Assembly: GCA_043754515.1 (NCBI GenBank)
Contig: JAYUUO010000308.1
Coordinates: forward strand, 1-20,362
Direction: 5' to 3'
Length of the DNA stretch: 20,362 nucleotides
Origin: Armatimonadota bacterium
GTDB taxonomy: Bacteria; Armatimonadota; Armatimonadia; Armatimonadales; Armatimonadaceae
How positions within the stretch are numbered: the stretch's first letter is position 1; the number at the start of each line of letters is the position of its first letter. The notes below the pieces were generated by a model, which saw only the letters and a program-made list of their open reading frames with translations, had not been told where the DNA came from and ran no database searches. The position numbers and the translations under genes are program-made. Shown in pieces: positions 5,599 through 20,362 of this stretch.

Positions 5599-6373
5599 TC
5601 AGCGGCGCGGTGACTTGCCAGTCAGTCGGTGGATGCGCGCCTCAACGGCATGTATTCCGTCGTTGTAGGGCAGTGCGTACAGGAGCGCGAGGGCACCGAG
5701 CACACACAGTGTTGCCGGCACGCTGACGAAGCCGAGCGCGAAACACGCGGCGTAGATCAGCGGCCCGAACCGGTACCGCTGATGCACGCGCTCGAAAAGG
5801 CGCGGGTCGAGCGACGTGTCTAGCAGGCGGTTGCCCCGCGAGGAGTGGTTCCAGATCAGGTTAAACGCCACCGCCATCAGAAAGCTGGTGTCAGCGTAGA
5901 TCAGCACCGCCGCCTTCGGCATAGGGCGCGGGATGCGTGAGGTAATCGGCGAGCACTGCCGTCGCGAACGGAATGAAGGCGACGACGAGCAACAGGAGCG
6001 AGCTGAGCACCGTGAGCAGATGGTCGTTGCGCCTGATGTAGCGGAACAGCACGCAGTGATTCGCCCACATGATCCCGACGGTGACGAACGACAACACGTA
6101 CCCGAAAAGCGAGGGCCAGATCGCGCCGAAATGACGCAAAACATCCCAGAGCGTCTGGCCCGGTTGCTCCACGGGACGCAACACCTTGATTTCGAGGATC
6201 AGCAGCGTGATCACGATGGCGGAGACGCCGTCGGACAGGTACAGGAGCCGCTCGTTGTTGCTCCCCTCGACCGCCGTCTCTTCTGCCTCCAGTTGGTCAG
6301 GTGCCGGTGACTCGCCCCCCGCGCTCACTCGCGGACGTGGCGAAGCCCCGGTGCCAGGAGGATCGCCTACCAC
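5599..6373 (-). pseudogene. TMEM175-family (DUF1211) potassium channel, frameshifted
   Basis: The N-half (ERLLYLSDGVSAIVITLLILEI..WPSLFGYVLSFVTVGIMWANH..FIPFATAVL) and C-half (KAAVLIYADTSFLMAVAFNLIW..) lie in different frames, with the shift near 5915-5925. The start is uncertain (GTG 6373 or GTG 6328). Confidence 0.85.
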
Positions 6374-7850: not shown

Positions 7851-9284
7851 CTACTTCTTCTTATACACAAACACCACCCAGAGTGAGAACAAAACCGTGA
7901 CCGCCACGAGAGCCGCGAGCGCGGGGACTCCCCAGTGCCCGGTTTGTATCGGGTCGTTCGCCGTATCCCAGAGTAGCTTCATATTAAGTAGCGCGATGGT
8001 CACGCAGACCGCGTAAGCGAGCACGGTGAGCCACGGCGGGCTGACGAACTCGCCCATCCGCTTGCGGTCCGATGTGAACATCGTCAGTGGGAAGATGGCG
8101 AACGACAACTGGAGCGAAAGCACGACCTGCGACAGGACCAGCAGACCCACCGTGTTTTTACCGCCGGTGACCACGATCATGATCACCGCCGGGATGATCG
8201 CGAGGCCCCGGGTGATCAGGCGGCGGAGCCAGGGCTGGATGCGAATTCTCAGGAAACCCTCCATCACGATCTGGCCCGCGAGGGTTCCGGTGATCGTGGA
8301 GGACTGCCCCGAGGCGAGCAGGGCTACCGCGAACAGGGTCGCCGCCGCGCCGTTCAGGAGCGGCGTCAGGAGCCTGTGCGCGTCCCCTAGCTCCTCGACC
8401 GGTTTTCCGCCCTTGTGGAACACCGCCGCCGCCAGCACCAGGATCGCCGCGTTCACGAAAAACGCGGCACCGAGCGCGAGGAACGTGTCCAGGGTGTTGT
8501 AGCGGATCGCCTGACGGATGCCGTCCGGCGTCTGATCGTTAGCCCGCGTTTGCACGATGGAAGAGTGCAGGTACAGGTTGTGCGGCATCACTGTCGCGCC
8601 CAGGATACCGAGCGCGATAAACAGCGCGTCTTTTCCGGGCAGGGCGGGCGTCACCAGCCCGATCCCGACCGCGTGCCAGTCGGGTTTCGCAAAGAACATC
8701 TCGACTGCGAAGCAACCGGCGACGGTGGCGACGAGCGTGATCACAACCGCCTCCAGTTTGCGGAAGCCGAAGTGCGACAGACCGAGGATCGCCAGCACGT
8801 CCAGACTGGTTAGCACCACGCCCCACAAGAGCGGTAGGTGGAACAGCAGATTTAGCGCGACCGCCGATCCGATCACTTCCGCCAGATCACAGGCGATGAT
8901 GGCGATCTCGCACAATATCCAGAGCGCGATCGCCGCCGGCTTCTGGTAGAAGTCGCGGCAGGCCTGGGCTAGATCCTTGCCCGTCGCCAGCCCAAGTCGG
9001 GCGCAGAGAGTTTGTAGCAGAATCGCCATCAGGTTCGAGGCAAGGATCACCCAAAGCAAAGCGTAGCCGAACCGCGAGCCGCCCGCGAGGTCCGTCGCCC
9101 AGTTGCCGGGGTCCATGTAGCCGACGCTGATCAGAAAGCCGGGACCCGCGAACGCCAGGAACCGCTTCCAACGCGGCACCCGCGTCGCGCCTCCTGTTCC
9201 GGGAACCGGGACGGATCGGTGAGATTCCGGTAGCGATACCATCTCGTCGCCCGGATCGGATACGCGTCGTGTGGTCATAATCAT
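7851..9284 (-). CDS. mntH: Nramp-family Mn2+/H+ symporter
   Basis: GPGFLISVGYMDPGNW (DPGN), GATVMPHNLYLHS (MPH) and GQSSTITGTLAGQIVMEGF (conserved transport motif). Confidence 0.97.
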   Translation of the reverse strand: MIMTTRRVSDPGDEMVSLPESHRSVPVPGTGGATRVPRWKRFLAFAGPGFLISVGYMDPGNWATDLAGGSRFGYALLWVILASNLMAILLQTLCARLGLATGKDLAQACRDFYQKPAAIALWILCEIAIIACDLAEVIGSAVALNLLFHLPLLWGVVLTSLDVLAILGLSHFGFRKLEAVVITLVATVAGCFAVEMFFAKPDWHAVGIGLVTPALPGKDALFIALGILGATVMPHNLYLHSSIVQTRANDQTPDGIRQAIRYNTLDTFLALGAAFFVNAAILVLAAAVFHKGGKPVEELGDAHRLLTPLLNGAAATLFAVALLASGQSSTITGTLAGQIVMEGFLRIRIQPWLRRLITRGLAIIPAVIMIVVTGGKNTVGLLVLSQVVLSLQLSFAIFPLTMFTSDRKRMGEFVSPPWLTVLAYAVCVTIALLNMKLLWDTANDPIQTGHWGVPALAALVAVTVLFSLWVVFVYKKK

Positions 9285-9289
9285 AGTTT

Positions 9290-10084
9290 CTACCAGCGGC
9301 GGGAGATCCCGCCCCCCACGAACCAGGAGTCCCGGGTGCCCAGTATGCCCACGCCCCCGCTGATGTCCAGCATTGTGTTAGCGGCGACTCGGTACGACGC
9401 TCCGGTGTCGAAAAAGTTCTGATGGATCTCTCCGACTCCTGTGTCGGAGACGCGGTACACCTCGCCGAACGACTGCCAGAGCGGCGAGATGTTGATGTTC
9501 AAACATAAGCCCGTGCCCCATTCGTCATAGCGCGCCCCGCCCTGCCGGATCCCCGCGTAGGTCACGTTGCCGCCCAAACTGAAGCGTTCGCCCAGGTCCC
9601 AACCTGCTTCGAGTGCCAGAGACGGCTGGTAGTCATCCTCACGGAGGTCGCGTGTGCCGGTCGGTAGTTCTACCCCGCCGATGAAGGCGAGGGCGGGCAG
9701 AAACTTTTGTTTCGGGTTCGTCTCCAGAAAGCGGTACTTGAGGCTCACCGAGGCATCGCCCAGCCCCTTCGCGTCCGCGCTACCGGTCTGCCGCAGGTAA
9801 GAGGGCAGACCTAGTCGGGCTTCCAGATTATCGCGCAGGGGGAAGCGCAGTTGTGCGCTGTCGCCGAACGACGACTGCTGGTCGCTGCCGCTCCGGTGTA
9901 CGCTGAGGCCCGCCTCCAACTGAATCCGCCCAGGAGTTACCGTATCGGTGCCGCTCGTGAATCCGGGGCGTTCCGCCGGAATGGGTGTCACGTCACCCTG
10001 CGCCAGTGCGATCCCTCCAAAGAGGGGACAGAAAACCAGGGAGCATACAAAAAATAGCGATGATATTCGGCGCATTAGGTTCAT
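9290..10084 (-). CDS. Outer-membrane beta-barrel 'transporter' (SphA / Phenol_MetA_deg-like)
   Basis: Signal peptide ending ALA-Q. Motifs ERPGFT..TDTVTPGRIQLEAG, GLGDASVSLKYRF and VELPTG, alternating beta strands, and a C-terminal aromatic beta-signal (GGGISRRW). ATG 10084 overlaps the mntR TGA (ATGA). Confidence 0.85.
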   Translation of the reverse strand: MNLMRRISSLFFVCSLVFCPLFGGIALAQGDVTPIPAERPGFTSGTDTVTPGRIQLEAGLSVHRSGSDQQSSFGDSAQLRFPLRDNLEARLGLPSYLRQTGSADAKGLGDASVSLKYRFLETNPKQKFLPALAFIGGVELPTGTRDLREDDYQPSLALEAGWDLGERFSLGGNVTYAGIRQGGARYDEWGTGLCLNINISPLWQSFGEVYRVSDTGVGEIHQNFFDTGASYRVAANTMLDISGGVGILGTRDSWFVGGGISRRW

Positions 10085-10554
10085 TTCGTTGTTTCTTGTG
10101 CCGGAGTCGCGGCAACCGATTGCGGCACGGTGCCGTCGGGGCGTGGTATCGGAGCACCGTGCGGACACGTCTCGGGGAACCCGAGAAAGGCATCGAGGCG
10201 GGTCTCGAACTCTTCCGATATCACGTGTTCGAGCCGTTCCGCCTCCTCGTGCGCCGCGTCCGGCGAGAACCCCAAACAGTCGGCGAGAAACCGCTCCAGC
10301 AGGCGGTGGTGGCGGGACAGTTCTACCGCGCTCTGCATTCCGATCCCCGTTAGGCGCACCCCGCGATAGGGGGCGTAATCTACTAGGCCGTCGCCCCGCA
10401 TGGTTTTGAGCATCTTGGTGACAAACGCCCGCGAGGTGCCGGTGCGCCCGGCGATGTCGGATGGCAGGGCGACCCCGCCGACGTCGGGGACGTCCTGTAG
10501 CGAGTAGATCGCCTTCAGCACATCGCCGGTCGCCTTTGTCAGGGAGCGGTTCAT
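10081..10554 (-). CDS. mntR: DtxR/MntR-family metal-dependent repressor (Mn type, no FeoA/SH3 domain)
   Basis: DVLKAIYSL, winged HTH, PYRGVRLT..G, HHRLLERFL, AHEEAERLEHVIS and CPHGAPIP. It has Asp and Glu at the positions of DtxR Met10 and Cys102, the Mn-sensing pattern. The start is moved to ATG 10554. Confidence 0.9.
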   Translation of the reverse strand: MNRSLTKATGDVLKAIYSLQDVPDVGGVALPSDIAGRTGTSRAFVTKMLKTMRGDGLVDYAPYRGVRLTGIGMQSAVELSRHHRLLERFLADCLGFSPDAAHEEAERLEHVISEEFETRLDAFLGFPETCPHGAPIPRPDGTVPQSVAATPAQETTK

Positions 10555-10561
10555 CTGAGAT

Positions 10562-10591
10562 TTAACCACGGTTAACTTAACCACGGTTAAC
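10562..10591. promoter_or_regulatory. Tandem palindromic operator, probable MntR box pair
   Basis: Exact 15-bp direct repeat TTAACCACGGTTAAC x2. Each unit is the palindrome TTAACC-N2-GGTTAA. The pair lies between the -10 box and the mntR ATG. Confidence 0.8.
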
Positions 10592-10620
10592 TTTATACCC
10601 CGGCCCACGCCCGATGTCAA
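10592..10620 (-). promoter_or_regulatory. sigma70 promoter of the mntR operon
   Basis: Minus strand reads TTGACA-N17-TATAAA. Confidence 0.88.
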
Positions 10621-10707
10621 CACTGCGGGAACCACGGAATGAAAAGTAGGTATAATGGAACAAAATAAGCCTCGCGGTAGCCAAACAAAGCAGGGTTCGT
10701 AAACTAA

Positions 10708-10730
10708 TTCCGTCCGAAATTCGGACGGAA
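10708..10730. repeat. Perfect 11-bp inverted repeat in the response-regulator leader
   Basis: TTCCGTCCGAA-A-TTCGGACGGAA, downstream of a TATAAT at 10651-10656. Confidence 0.7.
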
Positions 10731-10762
10731 CCCATCTAGAGAACGGGAAATCTAAAGCAACA

Positions 10763-11179
10763 ATGAGTTTTGCGGTAACGAACGAGGTGACGACGTCGGC
10801 CGAAACGGCCGCTCCCAAGCGCACCGTGCTGGTGGTGGAAGACGATCCGGGCATTCTCCGGCAGATCGCCTTCAATCTGGAGTCGCACGGCTACGCCGTC
10901 GAGACGGCGATCACAGGGCTACAGGCACTGCGCCTGCTGATGCGAAAGCGCCCCGACCTGTTGATCACTGATGTCATGATGCCGGAGATGGACGGCAACG
11001 AACTGGTGTCTAGCGTCCGCGCGGACGCCGATCTCGCGGATTTGCCGGTCATCATGTTGACCGCGCGTACCCAGGACGAGGACATGATAACCGGCTACCA
11101 CAGCGGCACCGATCTGTACCTGACCAAGCCGTTCAACCCCGCCGAACTGGTCACCTTCGTGAAGCGGATCTTAGGCTGA
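10763..11179 (+). CDS. Single-domain response regulator (CheY-like receiver)
   Basis: VLVVEDD, PDLLITDVMMPEMDG (phospho-Asp), PVIMLTA and YLTKPF. No output domain. Confidence 0.95.
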   Translation: MSFAVTNEVTTSAETAAPKRTVLVVEDDPGILRQIAFNLESHGYAVETAITGLQALRLLMRKRPDLLITDVMMPEMDGNELVSSVRADADLADLPVIMLTARTQDEDMITGYHSGTDLYLTKPFNPAELVTFVKRILG

Positions 11180-11879: not shown

Positions 11880-12499
11880 GTGAGTACTATCGTCTGCTAC
11901 GGCGATTCCAACACGCGGGGAACCGACCCCGCTACATACAGCCGCTTCCCGCTCCCCGCGCACTGGACGGGCGTGTTCGCCCGCGAGCTAGGCGACGCAT
12001 GGCACGTGGCCGAGGAGGGGCTGCGGAATCGGACCACGGACGTAGACGACCCGTCGCTCCCGCACCACGATGGCTCGCGGTTCCTGCCCATGGTTCTCGA
12101 AACGCACGCCCCCGTCGCCGTTCTGATCATCGCGCTCGGCACGAGCGACCTCAAAGCGCGTTACGGCCGCGACGCGTTCGATGCCGCCGCAGGGGGGAAC
12201 GCCTCGTGGAGCAGACGCGATCCGCCGGAGCCGCGCGGGAGATACTGATTCTCGTGCCCGCGCCGATGCGGGAGGTCGGGGGACTCACCGTGGAGTTCAA
12301 GGGCGCGCGGGAAAAATCGCTAGCCTTCGCCGAAGCCTACAAAAAAGTCGCGGAACGTCGGGGTTGCGTGTGTCTTGACACCGGAACGATCTAGACGCCC
12401 AGCCCGATTGACGGGGTTCACTTCGCGGGCGAGGAACACGCCAGGCTTGGGCAGGCGGTCGCGAGATGCCTCATGGCATTCCTCGAAATACCCCTCTGA
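11880..12499 (+). pseudogene. Second SGNH hydrolase (arylesterase-like), disrupted
   Basis: Motifs CYGDSNT, EEGL..RTT..DDP and LGTSD (block III Asn lost). There is a frameshift in the G6 run at 12192-12197 and an in-frame TAG at 12392-12394. The catalytic DGVH lies after that TAG, and the frame ends at TGA 12497-12499. Confidence 0.88.
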
Positions 12500-12561: not shown

Positions 12562-12954
12562 TCATATGTAGCCGAATATAGCCCTTATGCTGGACTCATC
12601 CTGTGTCTCCTTTAGCAAATAATTCATGCAAAGTAATAACAACTGTGAGTTGATATCTAGGTCTAAAGCATGAAGACTATACTCTTCAAAGGCAATATTG
12701 ATCTCTTGCAAAGTGAGCCAATTCGTGGCAAGGTACAAGGTGTCGAAGCCATTGTATAAAATGTTTCTCGGCCACTCGCGCCTTGGTACGAGTGGCAAGA
12801 TATTGTCGTACCGGACGTCGAAAACGCATGAGATAAAGCGGCGGTCGTCAAGCCCATTGTTCTGAAACTCTAACGAGGAACAACTCGACCACTTCGGCTT
12901 GTCTTTGCTAAAAAGCGGAATATACTCTATGTAAGCAAAGATTTGTATAGACAT
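12562..12954 (-). CDS. Low-GC hypothetical protein (130 aa)
   Basis: Open AT-rich frame from ATG 12954, with TATAGT 6 nt upstream. Globular-looking composition. Confidence 0.7.
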   Translation of the reverse strand: MSIQIFAYIEYIPLFSKDKPKWSSCSSLEFQNNGLDDRRFISCVFDVRYDNILPLVPRREWPRNILYNGFDTLYLATNWLTLQEINIAFEEYSLHALDLDINSQLLLLCMNYLLKETQDESSIRAIFGYI

Positions 12955-13000
12955 TATGCTACTATATCTACCCCTCAATTCAGTGGCTCGGGACTGCGTT

Positions 13001-13156
13001 TCAATCCGCCTCTTCGCCTGAATCTGTCAAACGGCGATCTGCCCTCTCCCAGCGGCACTGCGAATGCTCCCACGGCTCAAGTTCGTCCTCCGTCAGGTTC
13101 CCAAGCACGGCTGATAGCGGGTACTCCATGGTTCTGCCATCTTCAACCCTTCTCAT
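13001..13156 (-). CDS. Small acidic hypothetical ORF (51 aa)
   Basis: MRRVEDGRTMEYPLSAVLGNLTEDELEPWEHSQCRWERADRRLTDSGEEAD. Its ATG overlaps (ATGA) the terminal TGA of the upstream frame. It is too short for the ORF track. Confidence 0.35.
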   Translation of the reverse strand: MRRVEDGRTMEYPLSAVLGNLTEDELEPWEHSQCRWERADRRLTDSGEEAD

Positions 13157-13524
13157 CCTTCTATCACCAACAACTCCGCACGGTTACTAAAACTAGAAGG
13201 TTATTCACTAGCGACACTGTCATCCATGAATTAGGAGCACCCGGTTAAATCATCAACGAAATCTCGGTTGGTGAATTTATTGCAAACCAAAATCAGGCCG
13301 ACCGATTCCGTACCAATATCGCCGATAATGCGGTCGTACAATTCGTCGAAAAGGATGCCATGATGACTCTCCAGTTGCTTGAGGACACCACTAGAAACGA
13401 GTGCTTCACTGAACTGGTAAAGGTTCCTGACGTCTGAAGTATTCACGCAGTACACGACGGGATGTCGTTTTTCAAGTCTGCAACTACGGAGCATAAAGGG
13501 CTGATGTTTACTTTCCATTTTCAT
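13153..13524 (-). pseudogene. Barstar-like protein with two premature TAA stops
   Basis: AGGA SD before ATG 13524. VYCVNTSDVRNLYQFSEAL..HHGILFDELYDRIIG parallels barstar INGEQIRSISDLHQTL..YYGENLDALWDCLTG. The frame continues past TAA 13231-13233 and TAA 13201-13203 to ..NRAELLVIEG-TGA. Confidence 0.5.
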
Positions 13525-13814
13525 CTGGTCCTGGCTAAAGGAGGAACACATGTAGCGGCTACAGCATCCGGACTAACGGCGGTTAGCCTATAGTAATGAG
13601 TCTCAATCTAGCATACCGAGCCAGTACTGAGAGTAGTCACTCTATCACTCCGTCTATACTATCCAGCACGTCCGACATCGAGTACTCGATGCTCGTTCTC
13701 CCGCACAATTTGTCAGCGCGGGTCGCCTCGCCGACCCCGAGGTTGTACGCCTCCAGCACGAGCGTGGTGTTGCGGCGTCAAATAACTCAGCGGATCCGGG
13801 TACACTTTGTCTCG

Positions 13815-17034: not shown

Positions 17035-18528
17035 ATGCCACATCCCATGTCCAACACACGCTTTTATGCCCGCGCCGCTCTCGGGGTCGCCGTCGGCGTC
17101 CTCTCGATCGCCTTTCTGCCGCTCTCCGGCGTCCTGACCGTCCGCGCGGAGGGAGCCGAACTGCTACCCGATGTCGCAGCGCGGGGTGACGTCGCCGGGG
17201 TACGTCGCCTACTCGATGGCGGCACCCCCGCCGACACGCGGCAACCGTCTACGGGCTGGACCGCCCTGATCGCGGCGTGCCGGGCGAACAGAGCGGGGGT
17301 CGCCACCCTTCTCCTGGAGCGGGGAGCGAACCCGAATGCGGCGGGGGGTAACGGGTACACGCCCTTGATGGCGGCTGCGCAGGCAGGGAACGTTCCGCTA
17401 CTGCGTACCCTTCTCCTGCGCGGGGCGGACCCGAATCGCGCGACACGAAAGGGATTGACTCCACTGATGGTTGCCGCCGGGAACGCGAACGATGTAAAGA
17501 CCGCGCCGGTTAATCTGGAATGCGTGAAACTGCTGTTGCGCGGCGGCGCGGACCCGGACAAGCAGTACGGGGACGGCGTGACCGCGCTTTCGGTCGCGGA
17601 GTCGCGTGGCGCGACACTGATCGCGGTGTACCTGCGGCGCGTCGGCGCGGCGCGTAACGGGGCGGGGGATCGAGAAACTGCCCTGGTCGGAAACGGCGTC
17701 CTCGCCGGGAGCGTCCTCTATCGGGAGCGTATCGCGGTCTCGCCCGCCGCGTTCTCGCTGGTACGACTGCTCGATGTCTCTCCGAAGGTTCCCGTCGTGC
17801 TCTCGCGGGCCGTTACTCCGTTCGCGGGGAAGCAGGTGCCCGTCGCGTTCTCGCTCCCATATGCCGGTGCCCGACTCGCCGCCCGCCCGAACGCCCGGCT
17901 CGCGATGGACGCACGTATCATCCTGGGATGCGCCACTGAGTTCGCATCCGCGAAGCCAGTCCCGGTGCCGGGGGACGTGACGAAGAACAAGAACATCATA
18001 CTGGCGGTGACGCGCACCGGGGGTGCGCAACGCGCCCTGCTCGCCGGGGAAGCCATCAATGCGACCGACTTGGCTATCAGAAAAGCGGGTGTTAGCGTCA
18101 GCGGGCGTCGGAACACCGGTGATCTGCGCACGAAATACACCGCTTCCTTCTTGGGTGGGCGGCTGGTTCGCATCACGGCCAACTCGACCCAGGGCGACTA
18201 CGGCAACCGAACGGACCGCTTCTACTTCGGCGAGGGTGCCGACAGCGAAGGGTTCCTGCCGTTGCGGGCGGCTTTCCTTCACGCGCGCCGCGTCTCGCGG
18301 ACGCAACCCTCGCTGGGCGGCGGCGTATCCGCCATCATCCTTGGATCGTTCGACCAGGTCGAGCAGAAGATCATTCTCGGGGACGGCGGGGAGATCCTGT
18401 CCTCGGGCAAGACGGTGAACCGGCGACAGCAGTCGGTGACGGGTTCGGACACGAGCGCGGCACGCAACTTCGCGCGCCTACTCGCCAGCGACGCGACGCG
18501 CGCGGCGGCGGGGAGGCGAGGCCGCTAG
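17035..18528 (+). CDS. Secreted ankyrin-repeat protein fused to a YbaY/YscW-like domain and an unknown C-terminal domain
   Basis: Signal peptide. Ankyrin repeats GWTALIAA, GYTPLMAA, GLTPLMVA and GVTALSVA. YbaY signature GSVLYRERIA..LVRLLDVS..QVPVAFSLPY..ARI. Confidence 0.85.
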   Translation: MPHPMSNTRFYARAALGVAVGVLSIAFLPLSGVLTVRAEGAELLPDVAARGDVAGVRRLLDGGTPADTRQPSTGWTALIAACRANRAGVATLLLERGANPNAAGGNGYTPLMAAAQAGNVPLLRTLLLRGADPNRATRKGLTPLMVAAGNANDVKTAPVNLECVKLLLRGGADPDKQYGDGVTALSVAESRGATLIAVYLRRVGAARNGAGDRETALVGNGVLAGSVLYRERIAVSPAAFSLVRLLDVSPKVPVVLSRAVTPFAGKQVPVAFSLPYAGARLAARPNARLAMDARIILGCATEFASAKPVPVPGDVTKNKNIILAVTRTGGAQRALLAGEAINATDLAIRKAGVSVSGRRNTGDLRTKYTASFLGGRLVRITANSTQGDYGNRTDRFYFGEGADSEGFLPLRAAFLHARRVSRTQPSLGGGVSAIILGSFDQVEQKIILGDGGEILSSGKTVNRRQQSVTGSDTSAARNFARLLASDATRAAAGRRGR

Positions 18529-18548: not shown

Positions 18549-19826
18549 CTACGGCGCGGGCGTCGGATCGGGCTGGTGTGATCCGACCGGTGGGAACGTG
18601 ATGTCTCTCGGGGCGGGCCGGTCCCCGCTTTTGATCGAGAGGGTGATCCCGTTCCGAGCCGCGTCGCGCAGAGTCTTCGCGTATTTCTGGGAGTCACGCG
18701 CCAGTGTTTCTATCGCGACGCCGTTGATCGCCCGCACAACATCCCCGCTTCGTAAGCCCGCCTTCGCCGCCCGCGAGTCCGGCAAGACCAGATTAATCAC
18801 GTAGGCTTTGCTCATCGGTATGAAACTGATGCGGAACCCGATCTGCTTCTTCTGCTCCGTCGCCGCCCGTGCCCGCTCCTGCCGAGCGTAGTCCTGCGCC
18901 TTATAGACGATGAACGTCGCGCAGAGGAGCGCGAACGCGGTGCCGATAAGCAGGTCCCGCCTCTCCTGCTTCGTGAACGCCGCGTGGCGGGCGTTGGCGA
19001 TGATCACCGCGACACCCATTGGGGCCAGTGCCGGGAGCGGGAACCCCACCCACTCGACCTCCAGGAGCGCGACGAAGAGCAGGGCGAACATCCAGCGGAA
19101 GCTAGCCGTGCTTTCCAGACGGAGTAGAAAAATGGAGGCGAAGAAGACGGACAGGAATAGTACGTCTGCCGGCCCGATGGTGACGCCCGAAATCACTGTC
19201 CATGTTTTATGGGCGGCTTGCGGCAGCGTGCTCCCCACCCCGACCGATACCATGGAGATGAGTTGCGATCCGGTCGCGGTCAGCGCGGCGACGGTGCCCA
19301 TGGTCACGATCACGATGTCGAAAAAGATGGCGAACCCGGCGGCGGCGAGCAGGGTGTTCGGGTGCCGAATGATCCGCCCGACGGCGGTGCCCAGTAGCGC
19401 GACCCCCACCGGCAGGAACAGGTTGTTCGCGGTCAGGATCAGCCACGTGGGCGGCGAGACGTTCAGGTACTGCAAGAGCAACACCGTACCCATCGGTGCG
19501 GCGAGCGACAGACCGGCGATAATTAGCGGCGGCGTGGTCACCGGTAGTAACGCGGCGGCGCGGGTCATGCGCATCAGGGAGTAGAGAAGTCCGGCGAAGT
19601 ACAGACTCGCGACCAGGTGTTGCCCCCACACCGGGAACTTGTCCAGCGGCACGACCGCGCCCAGGAAGCGGTTGACCAGGGTCAGGACGCAGGCGAGCAG
19701 GGCGAACGTCGCGAGTTGTAGCGCGGGCGGCACGGACTCGCCCGGCACCTCCAGGGCTGGGGAGGTACCCGGTGACCGTGCCATAATATCCGGCAACCCG
19801 GCTGAGTTAGCAACATCGGTGCTCAT
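18549..19826 (-). CDS. Polytopic membrane protein with presenilin/SPP-like motifs and a C-terminal PDZ domain
   Basis: About 9 hydrophobic segments with FFD170, IGPAD221 and LPAL (265-267). PDZ: IGFRI..VINLVLPDSRAAKAGLRSGDVVRAING. Confidence 0.8.
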   Translation of the reverse strand: MSTDVANSAGLPDIMARSPGTSPALEVPGESVPPALQLATFALLACVLTLVNRFLGAVVPLDKFPVWGQHLVASLYFAGLLYSLMRMTRAAALLPVTTPPLIIAGLSLAAPMGTVLLLQYLNVSPPTWLILTANNLFLPVGVALLGTAVGRIIRHPNTLLAAAGFAIFFDIVIVTMGTVAALTATGSQLISMVSVGVGSTLPQAAHKTWTVISGVTIGPADVLFLSVFFASIFLLRLESTASFRWMFALLFVALLEVEWVGFPLPALAPMGVAVIIANARHAAFTKQERRDLLIGTAFALLCATFIVYKAQDYARQERARAATEQKKQIGFRISFIPMSKAYVINLVLPDSRAAKAGLRSGDVVRAINGVAIETLARDSQKYAKTLRDAARNGITLSIKSGDRPAPRDITFPPVGSHQPDPTPAP

Positions 19827-20012: not shown

Positions 20013-20362
20013 TAGACCGCTTGCATAAGTCTATTTGCAGATCTCCAGGTTGTGAATCGCTGCTATCAGATTGAATCGCAACCCGAAACGCTTGCGACGG
20101 TTTCGATACCGCTCCGACAAAATGCGGAACACCTTCAGGCACCCCATGATGTGTTCGCAACCGATGCGTTTTTGCGCGAGACCACGATTCCTCTTTTTAT
20201 CGTCAACCGTCAAGGGGTGATGCTTGGACTTTCTCTTGGGGCGCGCTGTTCGCATGGCTCTGACGAATCCCCTGATAGCCGCCGTCCGCCACCATCCGAA
20301 TCCGCGACAAGATTGCCGTCTGGCTGGCGTGGTACAAGGCTAGGCCGTGCCTCTTACCGGCG
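20013..20362 (-). mobile_element. 3' end of an IS5-family (ISL2/IS702-like) element with a frameshifted transposase
   Basis: Transposase C-terminus ADGGYQGI..HANS / PKRKSK..RIGCEHIMGCLKVFRILSERYRNRRKRFGLRFNLIAAIHN, with a frameshift near 20241-20244. A terminal-IR-like TAGACCGCTTGCATAAGTC lies at 20013-20031. Confidence 0.88.

Follow-up and report, generated by a model that had tools for sequence, protein, structure and literature searches.

The window, by which we mean the whole 20,362-nucleotide stretch of DNA analyzed here, encodes a 425-residue protein (P0001; 18549..19826, reverse strand) that is almost certainly a homologue of the A22 (presenilin/signal peptide peptidase, SPP) intramembrane proteases, as fold and profile comparisons together indicate. 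The gene is a usually single-copy member of a family that is nearly universal in the phylum Armatimonadota, which the earlier note on this DNA had missed. The family is a distant branch of the A22 fold that lies below the Pfam thresholds, and it carries a PDZ domain in one lineage. We consider that P0001 would be a housekeeping inner-membrane di-aspartyl protease acting on N-in/C-out stubs, with the PDZ domain as a filter, and we give this reading a probability of roughly 0.6.

The 425-residue reading frame is a real gene. Its GC content by codon position (0.63/0.48/0.83) is of the coding type, and Met1 is supported by the start MSTD(V/A), which is common to the close relatives P0003-P0005. 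The AF2 model of the full protein (pLDDT 85; 83 for the model of the membrane domain) has nine membrane helices, and the membrane domain covers residues 34-311 (18894..19727). All three motifs claimed in the earlier note, FFD170, IGPAD221 and P265-A266-L267, are present at the positions it gave. Asp170 (19317..19319), the predicted first catalytic Asp and the equivalent of YD, lies near the end of helix 5 (156-175) and is followed by a conserved Gly177. The motif G218-P-A-D221 (19164..19175), equivalent to GxGD, holds the predicted second catalytic Asp, which opens helix 6 (219-235). The PAL motif (residues 265-267; 19026..19034) stands directly before helix 8 (267-281). The extra membrane helix and the PDZ domain that were said to follow the core are likewise seen in the AF2 model and by Pfam: helix 9 spans about residues 291-311 (18894..18956; hydropathy and alignments), and the PDZ domain spans residues 329-411 (18594..18842), with the binding loop I329-G330-F331. 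Helix 9 also occurs in members without PDZ, lies outside the range aligned to A22 chains and would carry the C-terminus to the side of the catalytic loop.

A loose regular expression for the three motifs matches 10 of the 31,376 stop-to-stop frames of this genome, so the motifs alone are not beyond chance and independent support is needed. One kind of support comes from the predicted fold. In a wide VIA-align search of 48,161 chains with the membrane-domain model (residues about 65-285 aligned), the top four were SPPL2a (Z 10.4, rmsd 4.1, 186 residues aligned), PSH (8.3), PS1 (8.1) and PS2 (8.0), and the next chain scored 5.9. In a second comparison, 20 A22 entries reached Z 8.5-11.3 (rmsd 3.4-5.3, 153-195 residues aligned) and the next entry 5.0; the model is a predicted one, and Z 8-11 is within the range that, as VIA-align warns, helical bundles can reach. 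Identity to characterized A22 proteins in the structural alignments is 11-16%. Foldseek ranked presenilin first for the membrane domain with an E-value of only 0.066, and its matches for the full model were all to PDZ domains, with E-values above 0.001.

The other kind of support comes from profiles. Searches with the single sequence or its close clade (Pfam, NCBIfam, phmmer against PDB, profiles A3 and A4) gave no match for the membrane domain, and the query matches no A22 model in Pfam (PF01080, PF04258, PF06550) or NCBIfam and no A22 protein among the PDB sequences. Profile A2 retained PDZ columns, and its matches were dominated by PDZ proteins. Profile A5 was built from 68 diverse core-only segments and compared with 177,635 PDB sequences; it gave seven matches at E<=10, all to PS1, PS2 or SPPL2a (E 0.0026-0.032), in which GxGD and PAL pair in register with those of PS1 (GLGD) and SPPL2a (GFGD). 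A weak sub-threshold stretch pairs D170 and G177 with D257 of PS1 and the Gly after it. Four of the 68 members touch the Pfam model Presenilin and three touch Peptidase_A22B (best E 4.8e-5, PF04258). The best bit scores are below the cut-offs (19.4 of 23.3 for PF04258, 18.4 of 34.3 for PF01080), and all members for which scores were shown stayed below the curated A22 cut-offs. Thus the family falls outside A22A and A22B as they are modeled and represents a distant A22-fold branch. The comparison with presenilin, Peptidase_A22B and archaeal SPP profiles that the earlier note had proposed therefore failed for the query and gave sub-threshold matches for some members. The fold does resemble presenilin, both Asp are conserved, and no unrelated membrane family was matched with confidence. 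Each signal of homology is modest, and it is their agreement that carries the case.

The closest known enzymes are the SPP/SPPL proteases (MEROPS A22B, PF04258; SPPL2a, PDB 9K92/9K93). They are similar to P0001 in fold (Z 10.4), in motif order, in being a single chain and in the orientation proposed below. They are separated from P0001 by its bacterial origin, by an identity of about 11%, and by its GPAD motif, C-terminal PDZ domain and sub-threshold Pfam scores. The two Asp of SPPL2a (D351, D412) are 61 residues apart, compared with 51 in P0001 (PMC12745688, partial text). Helices 2-8 of P0001 align with the presenilin/SPP core, but there are apparently two fewer core helices and one extra helix at each end. 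Judging by the end points of the alignments only, helix 2 matches TM1 of A22 proteins, four helices rather than six lead from there to the first Asp, helices 5 and 6 carry the Asp residues, and the match leaves out helices 1 and 9. PS1/PS2 (A22A, PF01080) and PSH/MCMJR1 (PDB 4HYC, 4HYG, 4Y6K; PF06550) score Z 8.3-11.3 against the model. The profile match to presenilin extends from GLGD to PAL, and D-x6-G-(T/P) weakly matches the segment that follows D257 in PS1. Unlike these proteins, P0001 has no long catalytic loop, no PF06550 match and, probably, an orientation inverse to that of presenilin, and it has a PDZ domain.

A search with residues 30-320 yielded 121 proteins at E<=1e-3, of which 120 were listed. 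All named relatives are from Armatimonadota, and the closest share 74-80% identity with the query. The wider set consists of roughly 300-residue proteins without PDZ, mostly with GxGD; most family members have the canonical GxGD and no PDZ. The family profile matches 287 of 301 Armatimonadota genomes, usually once, and 229 of the 238 high-quality ones. None of the five small genomes of family f17 (G016, G030, G044, G057, G070) has a match, and nine f17 loci inspected next to leuS or the regulator contained no hidden divergent copy. The family was not found in the plasmids or viral contigs searched, and further broad searches returned almost only the known clade; named matches in the ESM Atlas scored 0.81-0.84 and are leads only. 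A locus labeled Janthinobacterium (L034) was rejected as an out-group: its neighbors are common to Capsulimonadaceae loci, its group matched in 56 of 61 genomes, and it is probably mislabeled. A broader picture, in which the phylum has a core pathway of the presenilin/SPP type with a substrate class of its own and one family has added the PDZ fusion, is possible but rather doubtful.

Several loci depart from the usual single short gene. The gene is present in two tandem copies 25 bp apart in L072 and L074. P0194, P0184, L103 and L140 are longer or have inserts before the helix that precedes the first-Asp helix; the insert of P0194, presumably FHA-like, has no Pfam match. A second paralogue of about 940 residues (P0262) is encoded at L089:361-3213 (+). 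It consists of a signal-peptide-like start, a carboxypeptidase-regulatory-like domain, one helix, an Arg-rich stretch, an A22-like core with GAGD and PGLPAL, and a hydrolase-like region (weak DLH match). Open frames of more than 1,000 residues in four genomes suggest that paralogues of this kind recur.

The PDZ fusion is real, and the hydrophobic-Gly-hydrophobic loop is kept. The domain scores above the Pfam cut-offs (PDZ_6, E 8.7e-8; PDZ, E 1.3e-6), and all NCBIfam and PDB sequence matches of P0001 are to this part. It most resembles the CtpB/HtrA type (CtpB PDZ in VIA-align: Z 10.1, rmsd 2.5 over 83 residues) and has no close paralogue in the genome. G330 is kept in 100 of 102 PDZ sequences, and the next residue is mostly F, W, I, L or M. 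The domain diverges fast, with a median identity to the query of 28%, whereas the core has 59%. Of the 120 close homologues 102 carry it, but 101 of 125 phylum-wide sequences do without it, which marks it as dispensable, and among the loci from phylum genomes it occurs only in the window's own, Armatimonadaceae-like family. That family has a match in 31 of 32 genomes. Of these matches, 26 read on into the PDZ domain without a change of frame, two end ahead of it, and three are partial. A quick tree of 66 rows places the PDZ proteins together (SH-aLRT 87), within a branch supported at 98, and their group is nested among PDZ-less GPAD proteins; there is one exception, P0059, which looks frameshifted. 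Thus GPAD came first, and the PDZ domain was probably acquired in a single event in the Armatimonadaceae-like family.

The genomic context bears on the alternative of a dedicated signaling protease, which would act on a single conserved substrate (an anti-sigma factor, for instance) or with an ANTAR or kinase partner, with PDZ as a sensor. In relatives the gene is divergent from genes for an ANTAR response regulator and a GAF-GAF-HisKA_2 kinase. Of 24 named close loci, 21 have the regulator next to the gene, and the other three have no upstream DNA. Among 60 hand-picked diverse loci, the regulator is present in 24 and the kinase in 22. These linkages, together with the paralogue that has extra outward domains, favor signaling. 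However, the gene stands before leuS just as often (22 of 60), so the linkage to the regulator looks like old gene order. The regulator is also kept in four of the five f17 genomes, which have no family gene; therefore the linkage need not be functional. No sigma or anti-sigma gene recurs among the neighbors of the family loci. On balance a dedicated signaling role appears unlikely.

In the window itself the upstream side of the gene is altered. An insertion-sequence fragment (20013..20362, reverse strand; DDE_Tnp_4, E 3e-8) lies at the contig end, about 190 bp upstream, and recurs as a repeat on other contigs. In this genome (G000) the ANTAR regulator is located at the end of contig C229, with another repeat next to it. 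The gene and the regulator were probably split by an insertion, which may have changed the promoter region of the gene. On the other side there is a convergent gene (17035-18528, forward strand) with a signal-peptide-like start, ankyrin repeats and a YscW-like domain; it adjoins the family gene only in the closest relatives (L001, L003/L139).

Conservation of the motifs bears on whether the protein is an enzyme. We used two alignments: a close one of 120 rows (the query and 119 homologues, with P0002, the window's own protein, left out) and a phylum-wide one, for which 152 loci gave 144 members and, after removal of duplicates, 125 sequences. The latter over-represents the window's own family and the best-scoring family, so its proportions are not phylum frequencies. 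D170, G218, P219, A220, D221, P265 and A266 are kept in all 120 close homologues and L267 in 114. Across the 125 sequences D170, G218 and D221 are invariant. The second-Asp motif is the canonical GxGD in 80 and GxAD, the type of the query, in 45; the PAL position is looser than in close homologues (PAL 61, AAL 28, PGL 20). The residue before D170 is I in 46, V in 31, F in 29, A in 15, Y in two, L in one and M in one; the query (FFD170) thus lacks a strict YD and has the hydrophobic-D form, as which the first-Asp motif of A22 proteins is given (PMC12745688, partial text). The homologue alignment proposed earlier therefore upheld both Asp throughout, and PAL firmly in close homologues and more loosely across the phylum (61 of 125), and it revealed the PDZ fusion to be lineage-specific. 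The conservation of the motifs is beyond chance.

The suspicion that the GPAD change marks an inactive or repurposed protein is not supported. GxAD is found in 45 of 125 sequences, 21 of them, from several families, without PDZ, and published GxAD enzymes stay active, so GPAD is not a sign of a dead enzyme. Human SPP G264A keeps high activity (PMC5669866, partial text), and PibD of S. acidocaldarius is naturally GGAD and active (PMC10117864, partial text). MCMJR1 G219A and PS1 G384A are slower (PMC2947513, partial text); a reduced rate is therefore possible for GPAD. The Gly-to-Ala change would tune rate or specificity without abolishing activity.

A protein of the A22 fold that serves as a channel, a scaffold or a pseudoprotease, or one that uses its Asp dyad for a reaction other than peptide hydrolysis, would agree with the low identity to characterized A22 proteins (11-16%), with Pro at the x position of the motif in 84 of 125 sequences, with the two core helices that are apparently missing, and with the ion-channel activity reported for GxGD proteins (PMC10117864, partial text). 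Such a protein is nevertheless quite unlikely, because the Asp pair and the first Gly in 125 of 125 sequences and GxGD in 80 are hard to explain without catalysis. On balance P0001 is probably an active protease.

The orientation in the membrane determines which substrates such a protease could cut. The mean number of Lys and Arg residues is 1.9, 2.5 and 3.7 in the short loops H4-5, H6-7 and H8-9, whereas the PAL loop has 0.25 and the catalytic loop 2.0 over its 39 residues. Basic residues also occur at the C-terminal end of helix 9 (1.7 in nine residues), which counts against an outward C-terminus, and the summed bias is about 11 for the SPP orientation versus 7 for the other. In the paralogue P0262 the Arg-rich stretch before helix 1 places the start of that helix inside, and in a protein of nine helices this puts the catalytic loop and PDZ outside. 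The SPP-type orientation, with both on the outer side, is probable from these sequence features. The inverse arrangement, an active A22 protease oriented like presenilin, with the catalytic loop and PDZ in the cytoplasm and type I substrates, could invoke the basic residues after helix 9 of the query (K309, R316, R319, R321), the many PDZ-less members that end in Arg or Lys just past helix 9, and the best Z-score, which is to PS1 (11.3), tied with SPPL2a (10.4). It is improbable in view of the summed bias, the architecture of P0262 and the resemblance of the PDZ domain to those of extracytoplasmic proteases.

For the preferred reading, a housekeeping protease with a PDZ filter, we propose the following arrangement. 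The N-terminus would be inside, and the loop between D170 and D221, the PAL motif and the C-terminus would face outward after nine helices, as in SPP. Enzymes of the SPP family have an orientation opposite to that of presenilin and cut type II proteins (PMC12745688, partial text). With an outward-facing site, P0001 would therefore cut N-in/C-out (type II) helices, the simplest candidates being the stubs of signal peptides or anchors that remain after an initial cleavage. The PDZ domain of the Armatimonadaceae-like family, on the outer side near the site, would select substrates by excluding bulky ectodomains or by reading the new C-terminus, as on the unrelated RseP. The PDZ domains of RseP are a size filter (PMC7728848, partial text), and by this analogy there is about an even chance that the PDZ domain of P0001 acts on substrate access. 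The analogy with RseP/RasP (M50) is functional only: these enzymes have an extracytoplasmic PDZ and act on N-in/C-out substrates and signal peptides (PMC7728848, partial text), but they are zinc metalloproteases of unrelated fold whose PDZ lies between helices and not at the C-terminus.

A different gene of this genome encodes RseP, which has a PDZ domain of its own. P0001 has no HExxH, the M50 matches of the genome are elsewhere, and the TIGR00054 match of P0001 covers only the PDZ part (326-389). RseP was matched in 101 of 101 genomes (93 over the cut-off), and we rejected the family as a replacement for it. SppA is over the cut-off in 80 of 151 genomes and absent from this one; complementarity with SppA was also rejected, f17 having neither SppA nor the family. 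RseP is universal and SppA patchy, so neither is simply replaced, and clearance of signal peptides is not obviously vacant. A link to prepilin-like proteins was rejected too, since f17 genomes have 19-46 prepilin-type motif matches each and no family gene. The search for PEP-CTERM matched in no genome and is hence uninformative on a link. The f17 genomes, without a family or SppA match and with RseP present, form a natural comparison set for co-lost substrates.

To our knowledge, A24 peptidases (PilD, FlaK, PibD) lack PAL. That P0001 is a divergent A24 prepilin/preflagellin-type peptidase, or a member of an unrelated membrane family with look-alike motifs, is highly improbable and largely refuted by the register of PAL with PS1 and SPPL2a in profile A5 and by the fold ranking, in which only A22 chains stand out: A24 enzymes share the di-aspartyl, GxGD-type motif, with a natural GGAD in PibD (PMC10117864, partial text), and a phylum genome may hold many prepilin-like proteins (19-46 in five f17 genomes), but f17 has these prepilins without a family match, and no sequence or fold match to A24 was seen. 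PF01478 matches neither the query nor the 120 homologues, and the A24 gene of this genome is a separate one. The FlaK fold was not listed in the fold searches, from which its exclusion does not follow.

The A22 proteases in the literature consulted are from eukaryotes and archaea. The phrase "bacterial presenilin homologue", which we take to mean the archaeal PSH, was met there once, in a partial text and without an organism name. Raut et al. (2021), going by the title, may address bacterial members. A 2025 paper on the SPPL2a structure contrasts A22 proteases with the unrelated bacterial SppA (PMC12745688, partial text). Neither the Armatimonadota family nor a PDZ-fused A22 protein was found in the literature searched, which covered few subscription papers and included PMC9263693, PMC12067869 and PMC8396450 (partial texts). 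About 95% of the sampled phylum genomes have an A22-fold gene, mostly in single copy, that Pfam and NCBIfam miss. This points to a membrane pathway that is so far unstudied, although bacterial A22-like sequences are already in databases (the ESM Atlas lead), which tempers the surprise. Because the small single-chain proteins of the family form natural series of GxGD versus GxAD and of PDZ versus no PDZ, they allow tests of the role of the second Gly and of the gating of a presenilin-type site by PDZ. If the broader picture given above, of a phylum-wide pathway, is true, a PDZ-gated aspartyl intramembrane protease would have arrived at the design of RseP independently, on the presenilin fold, and it would serve as a minimal bacterial model in which the presenilin G384A change has a natural counterpart.

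Elsewhere in the window, two genes, at 11880-12394 (forward strand) and 5599-6373 (reverse strand), are each apparently split over two frames, which may reflect frameshifts or assembly errors; we take them to be a GDSL/SGNH-like hydrolase and a TMEM175-like channel, respectively. The region 12562-13551 has a GC content of 0.54-0.55, versus about 0.63, and small open reading frames on both strands, and is possibly a foreign insert. An apparent manganese-uptake locus at 7851-10875 (reverse strand) includes a PF13557 protein and, presumably, an NRAMP-like transporter and a DtxR-like regulator.
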